In this document: piece by piece, positions 1,693 through 61,449 of the stretch
How the letters are laid out: the number at the start of each line of letters is the position of its first letter
How positions within the stretch are numbered: the first letter of the stretch is position 1
Assembly (NCBI GenBank): GCA_041657885.1
Contig: JBBABB010000001.1
Location: 198,926-262,925, forward strand
Source: Minisyncoccota bacterium
GTDB taxonomy: Bacteria; Patescibacteriota; Minisyncoccia; Phycocordibacterales; UBA9973
Length of the DNA stretch: 64,000 bases
Direction of reading: 5' to 3'
The notes under the pieces: generated by a model
The model's database searches: none
What the model saw: the letters and a program-made list of their open reading frames with translations, nothing else
Told to the model about the DNA's origin: nothing
Translations under genes and position numbers: made by a program

Positions 1693-3075
1693 TTAAATTT
1701 TAGAAATTTTTGAGCCGGAATCGGTATCTTTTATTTCATAACCCAGTTCTTTTATTTTCTTTCTAAGCTCGTCGCTTTTAGACCAATCTTTTTCTGCACG
1801 AACTTTTTCTCTTTTTTTTGCTAATTCATTTATTTCATCAGGAATAATTTCTTCAGTAATATTTCCTAAATTAAGACCTAAAACCTTATCAAAATCTAAT
1901 ATTGTTGCTAATTTATCTTCGTTTGAAATTCCATATTTGAATATTTCTCCAACAGTAGCAATGGCTTTGGGTATATTTAAATCATCATTAATACTATCTA
2001 AAAATCTCTCTTTAATCTCCATATTCACAGTACCTATTGTTGTTCCAAGAATTTTAATTTTATTTATTAAATTATTATAACCATTTAATGCCGCAGTCTC
2101 TATGTCAGAATTCCACTCCATCTTCTTTCTGTAGTGAACACCAAAAGTTGCAAAGCGATAAACTAGTGGGTTAATATTTTTATCTATAAATTCACTTCTA
2201 AGTGTTAAAAAATTACCTGTACTTTTAGCCATTTTTTCACCATCTTTGAGATTCATAAATTCTCCATGCATCCAATAGTTTACGCATGGTTCTTTACCTG
2301 TGAAGCTTTCTGTTTGGGCTATTTCATTTGTATGGTGAATATTGATATGATCAACACCACCACAATGAAGGTCAAATTGCTCTCCAAGGTATTTAACGCT
2401 CATTGCAGAGCATTCTATATGCCAACCTGGGAATCCTGTACCCCAAGAGCTTTTCCACTCCATTTGGCGCTTTGTGTCCTTAGGGGAGAATTTCCATAGA
2501 GCAAAATCTGTAGCATTTCTTTTCTCTATATTTATTTCTACCCGAGCACCTTCTTTTAAGGCCTCAATTTTTTGATGGGAAAGTTTATTATAATTTTCAA
2601 CTTTTGATGTATCAAAATAAACTCCATCACTTGTTTTATAAGTAAAACCTTTCTTCTCCAAAGTTGCTATCATTTCTATCTGTTCTTTAATATTATCGGT
2701 TGCAATACAAAAAATATCTGGATAAATAATATTTAGATTTTTTAAATCCTCTTTAAATGCTTCCGTGTAAAATTTTGCTATTTCCCATACTGTTTTATTT
2801 TCTCTTTTTGATTCTTTCTCAATTTTGTCTTCACCCATATCACGGTCTCCGGTTAAATGACCAACATCAGTAATATTCATGACATGCTTAACGTTATATC
2901 CATTATAAGAAAATACACGTTTTAATATATCTTCAAACACATAAGTACGCATATTACCCAGATGGGCATAATTATAAACAGTTGGCCCACAAGTATATAG
3001 ACCAACATGACCCTGTTTAATTGGTTCAAAAATTTCTTTTTTTCTTGATAAAGTATTAAATATAACTAAAGACAT
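1693..3075 (-). CDS. cysS: cysteinyl-tRNA synthetase
   Basis: class I HIGH (HLGN) and KMSKS-like (KMAKS) motifs, CysRS-typical N-terminus CGPTVY. Confidence 0.93.
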   Translation of the reverse strand: MSLVIFNTLSRKKEIFEPIKQGHVGLYTCGPTVYNYAHLGNMRTYVFEDILKRVFSYNGYNVKHVMNITDVGHLTGDRDMGEDKIEKESKRENKTVWEIAKFYTEAFKEDLKNLNIIYPDIFCIATDNIKEQIEMIATLEKKGFTYKTSDGVYFDTSKVENYNKLSHQKIEALKEGARVEINIEKRNATDFALWKFSPKDTKRQMEWKSSWGTGFPGWHIECSAMSVKYLGEQFDLHCGGVDHINIHHTNEIAQTESFTGKEPCVNYWMHGEFMNLKDGEKMAKSTGNFLTLRSEFIDKNINPLVYRFATFGVHYRKKMEWNSDIETAALNGYNNLINKIKILGTTIGTVNMEIKERFLDSINDDLNIPKAIATVGEIFKYGISNEDKLATILDFDKVLGLNLGNITEEIIPDEINELAKKREKVRAEKDWSKSDELRKKIKELGYEIKDTDSGSKISKI

Positions 3076-12515: not shown

Positions 12516-12543
12516 TAAAAAATAAGCTATTATAAGGATATGA

Positions 12544-12662
12544 ATCCCGTACGAAGCGTTTATGGCAAATTTCTGGAAGTTACATATAAGTTTTATTTAT
12601 GTCGAATTTAATTAATTAATATAAGCAACGGAAATGTAATCATTTCCTGCTTCGTACGGGAT
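12544..12662 (+). repeat. 119-nt element bounded by 14-bp terminal inverted repeats, copy 1; its 3' end overlaps the murG ATG
   Basis: ATCCCGTACGAAGC...GGAAATG-taat-CATTTCC...GCTTCGTACGGGAT; the last two bases (AT) belong to the murG start codon; about 78% identical to the copy at 35611-35729. Confidence 0.7.
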
Positions 12663-13794
12663 GAAAATATTACTTACAGGGGGAGGAACAGGGGGGCATT
12701 TTTATCCTCTTATTGCTATAGCTGAGAAGCTTGTTGAAGTTGCAGATAAACAAAAGGTTATTGATCTTAGGCTTTACTATATGTCAGACACTCCGTATGA
12801 CAAACATATGCTTTTTGAAAATAATATAACTTTTATTCAAATACCAGCAGGTAAGATGCGAACTTATTTTTCCATAAGAAACTTTTTTGACATTTTTAAA
12901 ACAGCTACTGGTGTTTTCTTTGGTATTATTAGTATGTTCTTCATTTATCCTGATGTTGTTATCTCAAAAGGTGGTTATGCTTCGTTTCCGGCAGTTCTCG
13001 CAGCTAAATTATTAAAAATTCCTGTTATAGTCCATGAGTCAGATTCATATCCAGGAAGATTAAATGTTTGGACTGCAAAATTTGCTTGGCATGTAGCTAT
13101 CTCTTGGCCTGAAGCAATTGAGTATTTACCAAAAGAAAAAACCATTTTGACAGGTCAACCAATTCGTAAAGAAATTTTACACGGTGACCCAAATGGCGCT
13201 TTAGAATTTTTCAAACTTAGTCCTGACTTACCAATAATTCTTGTATTGGGTGGATCTCAAGGAGCAGAAATTATAAATAATATTATAGTGGATATTCTTC
13301 CTGTATTACTTTCTCAATATCAAATAATTCACCAAACAGGGAAAAATAATATTAGGGATATTTTATCTCGTTCAAAATTACTTATGGAAAATGACCCTAA
13401 TATTGGAAGATATGTGCCAATGCCTTATTTGAACAATTTAGCTACTCGTATGGCAGCAGGTTGTGCAAATCTTGTAATTTCTCGTGCAGGGTCTTATATT
13501 TTTGAAATTGCATCATGGGGAATTCCTTCAATTATTATTCCAATCACAAATTCAAACGGTAACCATCAGAGGAAAAATGCCTTTAATTATGAGAGAGTAG
13601 GGGCATGTGAAGTTATAGAAGAAAATAATTTATCTTCTCATTTACTTGTTGCAGAAATAGATAAATTACTTTCATCACAACAAAAACTTGATAAAATGAA
13701 AGAAGGCGCTTTGGCTTTTGCATCTCCAGATGCAGCAGAAAAAATAGCTCAATCAGCCATAGACATAGCTCTTACTCATGAAAAACAAAACTAG
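12661..13794 (+). CDS. murG: UDP-GlcNAc:lipid I N-acetylglucosaminyltransferase
   Basis: KILLTGGGTGGHFYP N-terminus, GT28 family. Confidence 0.9.
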   Translation: MKILLTGGGTGGHFYPLIAIAEKLVEVADKQKVIDLRLYYMSDTPYDKHMLFENNITFIQIPAGKMRTYFSIRNFFDIFKTATGVFFGIISMFFIYPDVVISKGGYASFPAVLAAKLLKIPVIVHESDSYPGRLNVWTAKFAWHVAISWPEAIEYLPKEKTILTGQPIRKEILHGDPNGALEFFKLSPDLPIILVLGGSQGAEIINNIIVDILPVLLSQYQIIHQTGKNNIRDILSRSKLLMENDPNIGRYVPMPYLNNLATRMAAGCANLVISRAGSYIFEIASWGIPSIIIPITNSNGNHQRKNAFNYERVGACEVIEENNLSSHLLVAEIDKLLSSQQKLDKMKEGALAFASPDAAEKIAQSAIDIALTHEKQN

Positions 13795-43079: not shown

Positions 43080-43856
43080 GTGAATAAGAACCCTAAGGCA
43101 AAACTAAATGATCTATTAAAAGATTTAAAACAAAAAGAAAACAAAGAGAAAGCGAAAATTTTGGCTGGGTTTTTCAAAACAGGCCCTGGTCAATATGGTG
43201 AAGGGGATTTATTTCTGGGGATAACTGTCCCCGAATCTCGCAAACTCGCTTTGAGGTATTCAGAGCTTCCACTTTCAGATATATCCAAACTTATCAAAAA
43301 CAAATACCACGAAGCCCGACTCGTCGCCCTCCTAATCCTCGTCCATAAATACAAAGTTGCCTCTACTTTGCATAGGTCTGACCTATGCAAAACTATTGCT
43401 GATTTTTATTTGAAACACACTAAATATATTAACAATTGGGATTTAGTAGACCTTTCAGCTCATTATATTGTTGGGGATTATTTATACTCCCACCACCTCG
43501 CCCAACGGGCACTCCTCCTCAGGCAGGAGGAGACTAAATACAGGACGGTCCTATATGGTTTGGCAAAATCGAAGAACCTTTGGGAACGCCGAATCGCTAT
43601 TATTTCTACATTTGCATTTATATACAAAGGGGAACCAGAGTGGACTTTCCACTTAGTCAAAATGCTCTTAAATGACTCACATGACCTTATCCATAAGACC
43701 TGCGGTTGGATGCTTCGCGAAGTAGGGAAACGTGTGTCAGAAAAAGAATTGACAACTTTCCTAGATATCCACAATACTCAAATGCCTCGCACAATGCTCC
43801 GCTATGCTATTGAACGACTCCCCAAAAATAAAAGGTTTTATTATCTAAATAAATAA
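43080..43856 (+). CDS. DNA alkylation repair protein (AlkD-like HEAT-repeat glycosylase family)
   Basis: ...WDLVDLSAHYIVGDY...KTCGWMLREVGKR... matches the DNA_alkylation family pattern. Confidence 0.75.
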   Translation: MNKNPKAKLNDLLKDLKQKENKEKAKILAGFFKTGPGQYGEGDLFLGITVPESRKLALRYSELPLSDISKLIKNKYHEARLVALLILVHKYKVASTLHRSDLCKTIADFYLKHTKYINNWDLVDLSAHYIVGDYLYSHHLAQRALLLRQEETKYRTVLYGLAKSKNLWERRIAIISTFAFIYKGEPEWTFHLVKMLLNDSHDLIHKTCGWMLREVGKRVSEKELTTFLDIHNTQMPRTMLRYAIERLPKNKRFYYLNK

Positions 43857-44172
43857 TACATTATAAAGGACATTACTACATAATAATGTCCTTTATAACT
43901 ATTTGTCCTTTATAAACTCTTATTAACTTCTTACGGGATTGTCCTGTAAAACTTGCTAAAAATAAAAAAATGTTTTCTAGTGTTTTTAATAAAAAGTTCA
44001 CAAATAAAAATCTTTGATACTTGACATAAATCAAATTATAATGCATTTTGGGATAAATCTTGACATAAACTACATTCGGTATAATCTGGGGGTATATGTG
44101 TTCTTGTTTTTAGACTTCCTTTTATTAATAATAAATCCTCCTAAATTCAATTAAGGCGGATAAGTAAAATAT

Positions 44173-61090: not shown

Positions 61091-61306
61091 TTATTCCCCA
61101 CTTCCAATATTATCTACAAATGTTTTACTGTGATTTATATCTTTAGACAAACGAGCTTTAACTTCTAGGTAAAATAAATAAGCAAGATACATAATAGCCA
61201 ATCCTGTAATCAAAAATAACACTTTGCGCCAATTATTAGGAAAACCTAAGAATGGTAATACCATTACCCATAAACCTATAATAAATAATGTTTTTTCTTT
61301 TCTCAT
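61091..61306 (-). CDS. hypothetical two-TM membrane protein
   Basis: start codon immediately abuts copy 3 of the inverted-repeat element. Confidence 0.4.
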   Translation of the reverse strand: MRKEKTLFIIGLWVMVLPFLGFPNNWRKVLFLITGLAIMYLAYLFYLEVKARLSKDINHSKTFVDNIGSGE

Positions 61307-61428
61307 CCCGTACGAAGTTGTTCTGATTACAGAACCAACATAAATTAACTATTAATATCGAAATATAACTCTATTTTTTCTGAACAAACTTACTCCCCCA
61401 TATTACATATATGACTTCTTACGGGACA
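61305..61428 (-). repeat. inverted-repeat-bounded element, degenerate copy 3 (inverted orientation)
   Basis: ATCCCGTACGAAG ... CTTCTTACGGGAC; inner hairpin GTTCTG-taatca-CAGAAC keeps the TAATCA loop with compensated stem. Confidence 0.55.
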
Positions 61429-61449
61429 GGTACTCCTATTATACAATAG

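Follow-up and report, generated by a model that had tools for sequence, protein, structure and literature searches.

Correia elements (CREE/NEMIS) of Neisseria are MITEs of ~100-150 bp with terminal inverted repeats, a short duplication and a co-transcribed hairpin; RNase III can bind them and either cut or protect them, and the expression of adjacent genes is altered (PMC2649163). The palindromic element described here is like them in size class, terminal repeats, duplication and predicted co-transcribed hairpin; however, CREE have other termini with a 26-bp repeat and a TA duplication, occupy many intergenic positions in a different phylum, are not placed at +2 of an ORF, rebuild no start codon and are not limited to one orientation. 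The termini (TCCCGTACGAAG) and the duplication (TGRA) found here led us to reject an assignment to the Correia class. Rickettsia palindromic elements (RPE) insert in frame inside ORFs (PMC10969869) and share with our element the condition of palindromic MITEs in reduced genomes, harmless by design where an insertion should kill, although RPE are translated within the protein and the main family here, through duplication of the start codon, keeps out of the ORF. A 60-nt relative of the family does lie in frame inside ruvA. REPINs are ~100-nt hairpin-forming, non-autonomous repeats in which pairing is maintained (PMC3116915, PMC3337134); they are extragenic, leave no duplication and are linked to RAYT, in contrast to the duplication and start-codon position seen here, where no RAYT was found around the matched loci. 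Position and duplication speak against membership in the REP/REPIN class.

Other parallels lie in the manner of working. IStrons and mobile introns neutralise their own insertion within a gene, which still works, IStrons carrying a group I ribozyme and splicing. Our element resembles them by working principle and not by membership: it needs no ligation, and a removal at the RNA level is putative; moreover, no match to described Rfam ribozyme or intron families was obtained, and a self-cleaving ribozyme or self-splicing intron of a described family was rejected, an undescribed ribozyme being conceivable. In the lambda N leader, the T7 early mRNAs and the split ribosome-binding site of T4 gene 38 a stable hairpin lies immediately upstream of the start, and cleavage or geometry decides initiation; a comparable ~21-bp helix ending at the AUG is predicted here, along with SD-like motifs near its base in a minority of copies (see below), but the phage leaders are fixed regulatory sites with Shine-Dalgarno sequences, while we are dealing with mobile DNA in SD-poor hosts. 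Ty3, a eukaryotic LTR retroelement, integrates within a few base pairs of transcription starts. The element studied here has an equally fixed position, at +2 to +5 of predicted leaderless starts, with the difference that Ty3 is guided by TFIIIB and the bias toward starts seen here reflects either targeting or the loss of other insertions. In a search of the open-access literature we met no description of this element and none of a prokaryotic MITE associated with start codons or leaderless genes; a review of the prokaryotic MITEs from 2024 is silent on both start codons and Patescibacteria.

Three copies are present in the window, i.e. the whole 64-kb stretch of DNA that was analyzed (Table 1). 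A sequence-only reading of this DNA had described a 119-nt element with perfect 14-bp arms and an inner hairpin, having the A and T of the murG start codon within its arm, and all of these features were seen in copy 1: its 14-nt arms are ATCCCGTACGAAGC / GCTTCGTACGGGAT, and the 3' arm ends with the first two letters, A and T, of the murG start codon (ATG, 12661-12663). The span first given to it, 12544-12662, corresponds to the element plus one extra base per side. A further copy announced before atpF was found with the same layout, ~80% identical to copy 1, and the one announced before a membrane-protein gene is likewise real and ends at an ATG, with the amendment that it lies on the minus strand, where it reads CCCGTAAGAAG...GGTTCTG-TAAT-CAGAACC-AA-CTTCGTACGGG and then ATG. 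The hairpin of this divergent copy 3 is compensated relative to those of copies 1 and 2. Common to the window copies are the arms (AT)CCCGTAcGAAG / CTTCGTACGGG(AT), the 3' arm being continuous with the ATG. An ATG had also been noted on the upstream side of copies 1 and 2, and ATGAAT and ATGGAT are indeed present there; in copy 3 the position of the old ATG is now ACC (ACCTGT, 61431..61426).

Table 1. Positions of the element copies, their target duplications and associated features in the 64-kb window.
Feature	Position	Strand	Remarks
Copy 1, element proper (T-CCCG...CGGG-A)	12545..12661	+	At the murG start; ftsW upstream
Copy 1, hairpin P4 (GGAAATG-TAAT-CATTTCC)	12630-12647	+	7 bp, loop TAAT
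Copy 1, upstream duplicated target TGAA	12541..12544	+	With A12540 makes the old start codon, ATG 12540-12542
Copy 1, downstream duplicated target TGAA	12662..12665	+	A12661 (element), T12662 and G12663 make the working murG ATG
Copy 1, -10 box TATTAT	12528..12533	+	Predicted original leaderless murG promoter; 6 nt 5' of the old ATG
Copy 2	35612..35728	+	At the atpF start; 35611-35729 with flanking arm bases
Copy 2, upstream duplicated target TGGA	35608..35611	+	Old start codon ATG 35607-35609
Copy 2, downstream duplicated target TGGA	35729..35732	+	Working atpF ATG 35728-35730
Copy 2, internal ACGGGA	35638..35643	+	Pairable with the first bases of the element, TCCCGT (alternative 5' hairpin)
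Copy 2, hairpin P4 (GGAAATG-TAAA-CATTTCC)	35697..35714	+	
Copy 3, divergent	61306..61426 (arms 61304-61428)	-	Precedes a 71-aa hydrophobic membrane ORF, 61306..61091
Copy 3, -10 box TATAAT	61438..61443	-	12 nt 5' of the arm
Solo 5' arm ATCCCGTAAGAAGT	43927..43940	-	No partner arm

Searching the window with the 14-mer gave nine matches at ≤3 mismatches against 1.87 ± 1.12 in shuffled sequences, none of 100 shuffles reaching nine; the solo arm listed in Table 1 is probably the remnant of a copy. The predicted RNA folds of copies 1, 2 and 3 have energies of -44, -41 and -37 kcal/mol (z = -6.3, -4.9 and -4.1, respectively), and in copy 1 the P4 hairpin stacks on a 13-bp terminal helix, giving ~22 bp that reach the ATG. 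Pfam identified the flanking genes as FtsW, MurG, the a, c and b subunits of ATP synthase and the remaining atp operon. An integron attC site was rejected, the arms not fitting the RYYYAAC / GTTRRRY cores and the flanks being core genes in conserved order (dcw cluster, atp operon).

Beyond the window, genomes were scanned, one per species, with the pattern CCCGTAMGAAG-N80-110-CTTCKTACGGG, yielding 45 loci (referred to below, with others compared, by L numbers), all but one of them in the ultra-small Patescibacteria (CPR) or unclassified MAGs. The carriers, named as the MAG depositors assigned them, are Saccharibacteria, Paceibacterota, Nomura-, Yanofsky- and Wildermuthbacteria and unclassified CPR MAGs; the single match in Acidobacteria is without every other feature of the family and is probably due to chance. 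At ~39/45 scanned loci the 3' arm stands directly against the ATG of a real ORF, in one orientation; this is the unbiased figure, given that the set of 49 copies used below was chosen for having an ATG and an ORF. Six more copies of the window's subfamily, before other genes, came from metagenomes, and a scan of viral contigs gave no copies.

Family members are 100-120 bp long (~115 bp; 102-120 bp in the copies measured), with shorter relatives of 60-83 bp, and have the termini T-CCCG-nnn-GAAG...CTTC-nnn-CGGG-A within arms of 13-15 bp; T is found at -1 in 49/49 copies and A at -2 in 46/49, neither being part of the search pattern. The upstream reading frames are short and not conserved, the element being non-coding, and the interiors differ among subfamilies, helices and short motifs excepted. 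One copy (L020) carries a tRNA inside the element, L014 is located in a 5' UTR, and L004, a non-start copy, adjoins a large serine recombinase gene. The genes downstream are unrelated to each other and include rpoC, ligA, leuS, a release factor, lepA, ssb, rpsQ, H+-pyrophosphatase, type II/IV secretion E and F proteins, a hibernation factor and yceG, which excludes a regulon or a riboswitch, as had been argued against a metabolite riboswitch for the window copies. A curated cis-regulatory RNA was rejected on the same ground together with the Rfam comparison, in which only tRNAs reached the gathering score and nothing came near any family threshold at E values up to 10.

The window has three copies, and one MAG at least six across its 5 scanned loci. 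L002 and L018, which lie on separate contigs of a single MAG, differ at 1 of 108 nt, and the copies within a genome are more similar to one another than to those at the orthologous gene elsewhere, both pointing to recent mobility; the start of the H+-PPase gene is occupied in three lineages. Neither a transposase or recombinase nor a longer autonomous element having these termini was found in the ~0.5 Mb around matched loci; the ORF beside the L011 cluster is without a Pfam match and without relatives at other loci.

Empty sites at the ftsW-murG and atpE-atpF junctions, where the sequence-only reading had proposed to look for them, were found in close relatives. In those with MurG 92% and 85% identical to that of the window (L046, L047, L048), ftsW is followed by 22-27 nt and murG, without the element, and the layout is a -10 box GTTATAAT, 6-9 nt and then ATGAAR: GTTATAAT-ttaaatc-ATGAAGATATTAC, GTTATAAT-ttaaaatat-ATGAAAATATTAC and GTTATAAT-tgaaat-ATGAAAATTTTAC, the L046 site reading ...TATAAT-ttaaatc-ATGAAG. 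The filled murG site of the window is TATTAT-aaggat-ATGAA-T[CCCG...CGGG]A-TGAAAATATTAC, with the junction in short form ATGAA-T[...]A-TGAAAATA. Similarly, relatives with AtpF 91%, 86% and 85% identical (L058, L056 and L057) have empty sites of the form ...TAATTAT, 6-7 nt and then ATGGATTCA, against ATGGA-T[...]A-TGGATTCA in the window; the orthologous atpF site of L053 is filled.

The general filled layout is ATGRA-T[CCCG...CGGG]A-TGRA. In 35/49 copies the tetramer preceding the terminal T is identical to the one following the terminal A, and in 5 more the two agree at three of four positions; the duplicated tetramer is TGAA in 31 copies and TGGA in 16, and R is the same on both sides in 41 of the 46 copies (of 49 in total) having a purine at both positions. 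Copy 3 has a G immediately 5' of its terminal T, in agreement with the downstream TGAG. A nested case, L011, in which one element lies inside another, is flanked by TGCG/TGCG. Duplications of other lengths occur, of 3 bp in L017, L045 and L022b and of 5 bp in L037b, and R switches between the near-identical copies L003 and L044. These junctions are most economically read as the insertion of T-CCCG...CGGG-A accompanied by a duplication of TGRA, 4 bp in length (3-5 bp). Of the two explanations put forward in the sequence-only reading, that of a MITE-like element at start-codon regions, with the ATGR bracket as target-site duplication, gains support from the empty sites and the 35 perfect duplications, as well as from the nested insertion and from copies that are near-identical although they lie at separate loci of the same genome. 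The element is small, non-coding and multicopy, has terminal inverted repeats and a target duplication, and is polymorphic in presence or absence; judged by these sequence features, it is a non-autonomous, palindromic mobile DNA element of MITE type, spread across Patescibacteria.

Regarding the targets, the distribution of -10-like hexamers (frequently TGnTAnAAT) in the window has its maximum 6-7 nt 5' of start codons (17/59 ORFs against ~3 per other position), and SD-like tetramers show no peak before start codons. Upstream of the elements, the best -10 box mostly ends 12-13 nt before CCCG, which places it 6-7 nt 5' of the old ATG; the promoter found in this way for copy 1 is TGGAAA-17-TATTAT, ending at 12533. 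Transcription starts, which in this work are predictions from -10 boxes, would thus fall on the A of the old ATG, placing the insertion at +2 to +5, and the occupied genes are predicted to be leaderless. The earlier statement that no Shine-Dalgarno sequence is visible needs a small correction in copy 1, where AAGGA (12534-12538) is found directly 5' of the upstream ATG, with the -10 box on one side of it and the predicted start of transcription on the other.

As the first base of the old codon is not duplicated, it is the terminal A of the element that completes the new ATG, a point that the sequence-only reading had missed, together with the leaderless context of the host genes. The working start codon is made up of this A and the duplicated TG, with the old start codon remaining upstream; being rebuilt downstream, it leaves the ORF untouched, and genes starting with GTG or TTG gain an ATG. 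The upstream codon is GTG or TTG in L002, L016, L018b and L043, and the downstream codon is ATG throughout. DTGRA sites in the window number 24 at gene starts, 126 in intergenic DNA and 1069 in coding DNA; ~89% of the copies are at starts versus ~16% expected if coding insertions alone were lost, and RA follows the ATG in 47/49 copies versus roughly 40% of the window's genes. The insertions thus prefer the sequence TGRA, and on top of this starts are either targeted or strongly filtered for.

The interior matches other copies in one gene-relative orientation only in 40/41 cases; the sole reversed copy, L012, precedes murB and has ATA as downstream codon and an intact upstream ATG. A near-fixed orientation is unexpected for a simple transposon with symmetric terminal repeats. 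The nested L011 copy and the 5'-UTR copy L014 keep the same polarity relative to an ATG-like target, so that integration itself is perhaps oriented. Two selective causes were considered and rejected. Accessibility of the AUG at equilibrium does not differ between real inserts and simulated reversed ones (0.29 vs 0.29, with the 3' arm ~95% paired either way), and avoidance of terminators is too weak a cause, terminator-like hairpins being found in 0/49 copies versus 7/49 when reversed. The sense strand folds slightly better than the antisense in 24/41 copies (p = 0.03), and counts of wobble pairs (G-U vs A-C), made to tell an RNA hairpin from a DNA one, did not favour the sense RNA.

Orientation is also the main attraction of a rival view, possible but in our opinion unlikely, in which the element is moved not by a DDE transposase but by site-specific recombination, with a serine or tyrosine recombinase acting in one orientation at TGRA cores. 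The excised form would be a circle with the junction CTTCGTACGGGA-TGRA-TCCCGTACGAAG, inverted arms around a short asymmetric core; an arm-core-arm layout is typical of recombinase sites, and the joined ends of the element would match it. Such a route would explain a near-fixed orientation to an asymmetric target, even for the nested non-gene copy and the 5'-UTR copy, it agrees with the asymmetry of the ends (the internal ACGGGAT is on one side only), and the L004 copy has a recombinase gene as neighbour. However, that neighbour is a single case, a duplication length of 3-5 bp is easier to reconcile with staggered cuts by a transposase than with a crossover core of fixed length, the empty targets are without arm-like sequence for a recombinase to bind, and the switch of R between near-identical copies runs against it as well.

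The fold of the element was analyzed across copies. In the terminal helix, pair 14 alternates between U-A (23 sequences) and C-G (11), the central arm triplets are compensated (TAC/GTA, TTA/TAA, TAA/TTA, AAC/GTT) and GAAG/CTTC also occurs as GAAC/GTTC. Seven arm pairs vary on both sides, with a covariation score of 0.144 compared with 0.061 in shuffles (0/500 reaching it); the structural covariation whose absence would have counted against the earlier reading is present in the arms. Paired cells amount to 92.2% for the structure versus 28-39% in slid controls. Arm positions that vary and yet remain complementary argue for a single-strand hairpin, of RNA or DNA, and not only for two equal protein-binding sites.

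Stacked on the terminal helix is a second one on the 3' side, present either as a local hairpin (GGAAATC/GATTTCC, GGAAATG/CATTTCC, GGTTCTG/CAGAACC, GGTCGTG/CACGACC, CCGAAAT/ATTTCGG, CTGC/GCAG) or as a long-range helix of 7-8 bp after a 4-nt bulge of AUCU, UCCU or UUCU (CGCGATC/GATCGCG, CACGGAC/GTCCGTG, TACGATC/GATCGTA). Terminal helices of 12 bp go with stacked helices of 7-8 bp and those of 15 bp with stacked helices of 3-5 bp, and the sum up to the ATG is 20-22 bp in 39/47 copies. The helix on the 5' side is less regular. There, an internal ACGGGAT-like copy, 8-32 nt after the 5' arm, can pair with the first 5-9 bases of the element; this stem (≥5 bp) is found in 35/49 copies and its mirror feature on the 3' side in 1/49. 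The A and U of the working start codon are paired in the predicted fold, within a 3' arm ~95% paired at equilibrium, and SD-like AGGA/GGAG motifs 6-8 nt before the helix base are present in 8/49 copies.

Such a structure could also be that of a cis-regulatory RNA selected by the host, mobile in appearance only: a stem sequestering the start codon, a thermosensor or a protein-binding leader. The strong fold (z = -4 to -6), the partly paired start codon, the covariation of the arms, the conserved helix length beside the AUG and the SD-like motifs of those 8/49 copies all agree with this view. Nevertheless, presence or absence differs among relatives with MurG 85-92% and AtpF 85-91% identical, duplications flank the element, near-identical copies lie at unrelated genes of the same genome, nested, solo-arm and tRNA-carrying forms exist and no Rfam family matches, so we regard it as improbable. 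The translational-control stem offered as second explanation in the earlier reading is not supported as a conserved host regulator, given its variable presence among relatives, although the A and U of the start codon are paired in the predicted fold.

No better placed is the proposal of a palindrome of REP/REPIN type, or derived from IS200/IS605, moved as single-stranded DNA by an HUH enzyme (RAYT/TnpA). Strand- and orientation-specific insertion is typical of elements moved by HUH enzymes, and the orientation-specific insertion, the long imperfect palindrome of REPIN-like size and the pairing kept at variable arm positions, which argues for a single-strand hairpin, would suit it. The class leaves no target duplication, however, and 35/49 copies here have one; REPs are extragenic and mostly at 3' ends, not at start codons, and among the matched loci (~0.5 Mb around matches, a portion of the genomes) no RAYT/TnpA gene was found. 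We hold this origin to be very unlikely.

The best explanation overall, and one that we consider quite probable, is a MITE-type palindrome inserted at leaderless starts with the ATG rebuilt, for which we infer the following route of expression. The native promoter would still fire at the old start, so that the mRNA would begin, as AUGRAU-CCCG..., with ~120 nt folding as a long hairpin, in which the old 5' end and the working AUG would meet at the base of a ~21-bp helix whose base pairs involve the A and U of that AUG. Endonucleolytic cleavage of this helix with 5' trimming could then leave a leaderless or near-leaderless 5' end. The features found in one orientation, namely the ~21-bp helix ending at the AUG and the decoy copy of the 3' end near the 5' arm, may account for its tolerance in essential genes. 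Such a leader in an SD-poor organism should block leaderless initiation, which favours helix cleavage with 5' trimming, and our best guess is that processing of the terminal helix keeps the genes expressed. Both RNase III and RNase J belong to the few RNases retained by CPR bacteria, being present in at least 90% of their genomes (PMC12641178), and the handling of the MITE hairpins of Correia elements by RNase III in Neisseria is a precedent (PMC2649163).

Several other routes were examined. The old ATG is kept in 33/49 copies, with GTG there in 3 more; it is mutated in copy 3 and in L050/L055 (ATTAAT), deleted in the orthologous atpF copy L053, where 10 nt (AGATCATGGA) are missing within a tract 96% identical, and absent in L001, L021, L027 and L033. 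As the upstream start codon is lost in at least eight intact copies, the old AUG appears to be dispensable. In the filled atpF lineages the ~30 nt that hold the -10 box in empty sites are not present. A conserved upstream ORF or translational coupling was rejected, stops occurring 24-97 nt before the real ATG in varying frames, and the SD-like motifs, at 8/49 copies at most, do not provide a split ribosome-binding site as a general route; in these copies they are situated 3' of the -10 box and 5' of the predicted start of transcription, and are perhaps not even transcribed. A strong outward promoter within the element (TGnTATAAT, ~70 nt 5' of the ATG) is a trait of one subfamily (L009, L021, L022, L026 and L036) and is not general, the sense score exceeding the antisense one in 28/49 copies; a 3'-arm promoter starting transcription at the ATG was rejected, as it has no -10-like hexamer at the right distance, and so was a tRNA-like interior as substrate of RNase P/Z, L020 alone holding a tRNA.

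Alternatives to processing are direct initiation beside the helix, a hairpin-bridged SD in the eight motif-bearing copies, and transfer of the initiating ribosome between the duplicated AUGs. A bypass or shunt, with the ribosome starting at the old 5'-terminal AUG and crossing the hairpin base to an identical one, would find its AUGRA take-off and landing sites brought together by the helix, its old codon retained in the copies counted above and an intact upstream ATG beside the downstream ATA of the reversed L012, but it is scarcely credible: we know of no bypass of such length, the frame between the two ATGs is not conserved, the upstream ORF stops before the real ATG, and under the criterion of a T4 gene 60-type bypass the codons match in most copies and yet the upstream one is lost in functional copies (copy 3, L053, L050/L055, L027, L033, L001 and L021).

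Returning to the processed MITE-type palindrome, a stronger version of it would be a self-erasing transposon, which both aims at the transcription start or first codon, beyond any filtering by selection, and, through a cut at the base of its ~21-bp terminal helix (by RNase III with subsequent trimming by RNase J, or by another activity), regenerates a leaderless mRNA beginning with 5'-AUG. We put this forward as a tentative idea, rather doubtful as it stands. If true, the element would be the RNA-end equivalent of an intron, with the corollary that the host could convert an internal cistron into a leaderless mRNA (compare the promoter loss in the filled atpF lineages).

The family is a new MITE-like one with an unusual target. 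What sets it apart from known MITEs is the position at +2 to +5 of leaderless starts and the ATG rebuilt from its own terminus, along with the single orientation and the conserved helix length beside the AUG. It is a case of very precise target use within an ORF and of a mobile element supplying part of a start codon. In practical terms, it may mislead gene callers on start sites, it marks leaderless promoters, and its presence/absence polymorphism serves as a strain marker in metagenomes.

Much of bacterial diversity belongs to the Patescibacteria, whose rules of gene expression have hardly been worked out. The element offers a natural experiment on these rules, in which dozens of essential genes, in SD-poor genomes of leaderless type, still function with a structured insert of 115 nt between promoter and start; its explanation would reveal an RNA-processing route to leaderless mRNAs, an unrecognised mode of initiation or an unusual tolerance.

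The tract shared with L053, a lineage in which the atpF site is also filled, is far more alike than its surroundings: window 34970-35760 matches it at ~96% identity while the flanks stand at 70-75%, and the tract encompasses the 3'-terminal part of the gene for ATP synthase subunit a (34275-35243), atpE, the element and the first ~40 nt of atpF. The pattern suggests that this stretch, element included, was exchanged recently by recombination. A hairpin lying 3' of atpE, present also in L058, a relative with an empty atpF site, is preserved by compensatory changes (CGATGCTCCG...CGGAACATCG, GGTGCCG...CGGCATC, GATGCTCAG...) and is followed by TTCTGAATATTATTT; together they are probably the atpE terminator.

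Coordinates of element variants, associated genes and transcription signals
Feature	Locus	Position	Strand	Remarks
Hairpin 3' of atpE	window	35555-35590		also in L053 and L058
Solo arm ATCCCGTAAGAAGT	window	43927-43940	minus	no partner arm
TGnTAnAAT / apparently leaderless layout, example sites	window	1693-3075, 15255, 20129, 25523/26564, 30084, 61450, 62187
Large serine recombinase gene	L004	409-2007		Resolvase, Recombinase and Zn-ribbon domains
Element nested within another element	L011	3999-4178		flanks TGCG/TGCG
216-aa ORF adjoining the nested element	L011	4257-4907	minus
60-nt relatives of the element (n=2)	L011	4975-5034 and 7827-7886		same arms, GC-rich centre
Reversed copy	L012	1042-1161		before murB
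Arms around intact tRNA-Ser(CGA)	L020	917-1026
275-bp version	L039	4320-4594		same arms, at start codon
740-nt insert between ftsW and murG	L047	9260-10000		close relative

One of the 60-nt relatives in L011 lies in frame within ruvA, adding ~24 residues, and closely resembles the Rickettsia RPEs. The arms in L020 lengthen the acceptor stem of the enclosed tRNA by 12 bp, and immediately upstream stands a further tRNA-Ser-like sequence, represented by its 5' half; either the tRNA may have been captured as cargo or a tRNA gene may have received the insertion. The flank of the 275-bp version reads ATGAAATGAT...ATGAAATT, which may be a trace left by insertion more than once. The insert between ftsW and murG in L047 carries promoter-like sequence of its own and encodes a 120-aa ORF having no Pfam match.

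The solo arm of the window, located in the spacer past a gene ending at 43856, is probably a decayed member of the subfamily of copy 3, the minus-strand copy. The ORF beside the nested element of L011 matches no Pfam family, and none of the other loci contains a relative of it. The L012 copy is the only one in opposite orientation relative to its gene, murB; ATA occupies the start position of that gene, and ATG is retained in the duplicate upstream. The gene could be a pseudogene, contain a sequencing error or use an unusual start. The recombinase gene of L004 is ~370 nt from an element copy not at a gene start, and tRNA-like sequences occur further along the contig, a layout that suggests an integrative element.

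Just ahead of the arm, three lineages share the identical 12-mer AAGGATATGAAT, each at a different, unrelated gene (window 12534-12545, L015 and L041), and AGGA, GGAG or GAGG is grouped 6-8 nt 5' of the arm in 8 of the 49 oriented copies compared. These motifs could represent a discriminator element, a bridged Shine-Dalgarno sequence or a target preference. Shine-Dalgarno-like motifs are not enriched before the window ORFs, 17 of 59 of which have a TGnTAnAAT box 6-7 nt 5' of the ATG, and the majority of the transcription units in the window look leaderless.
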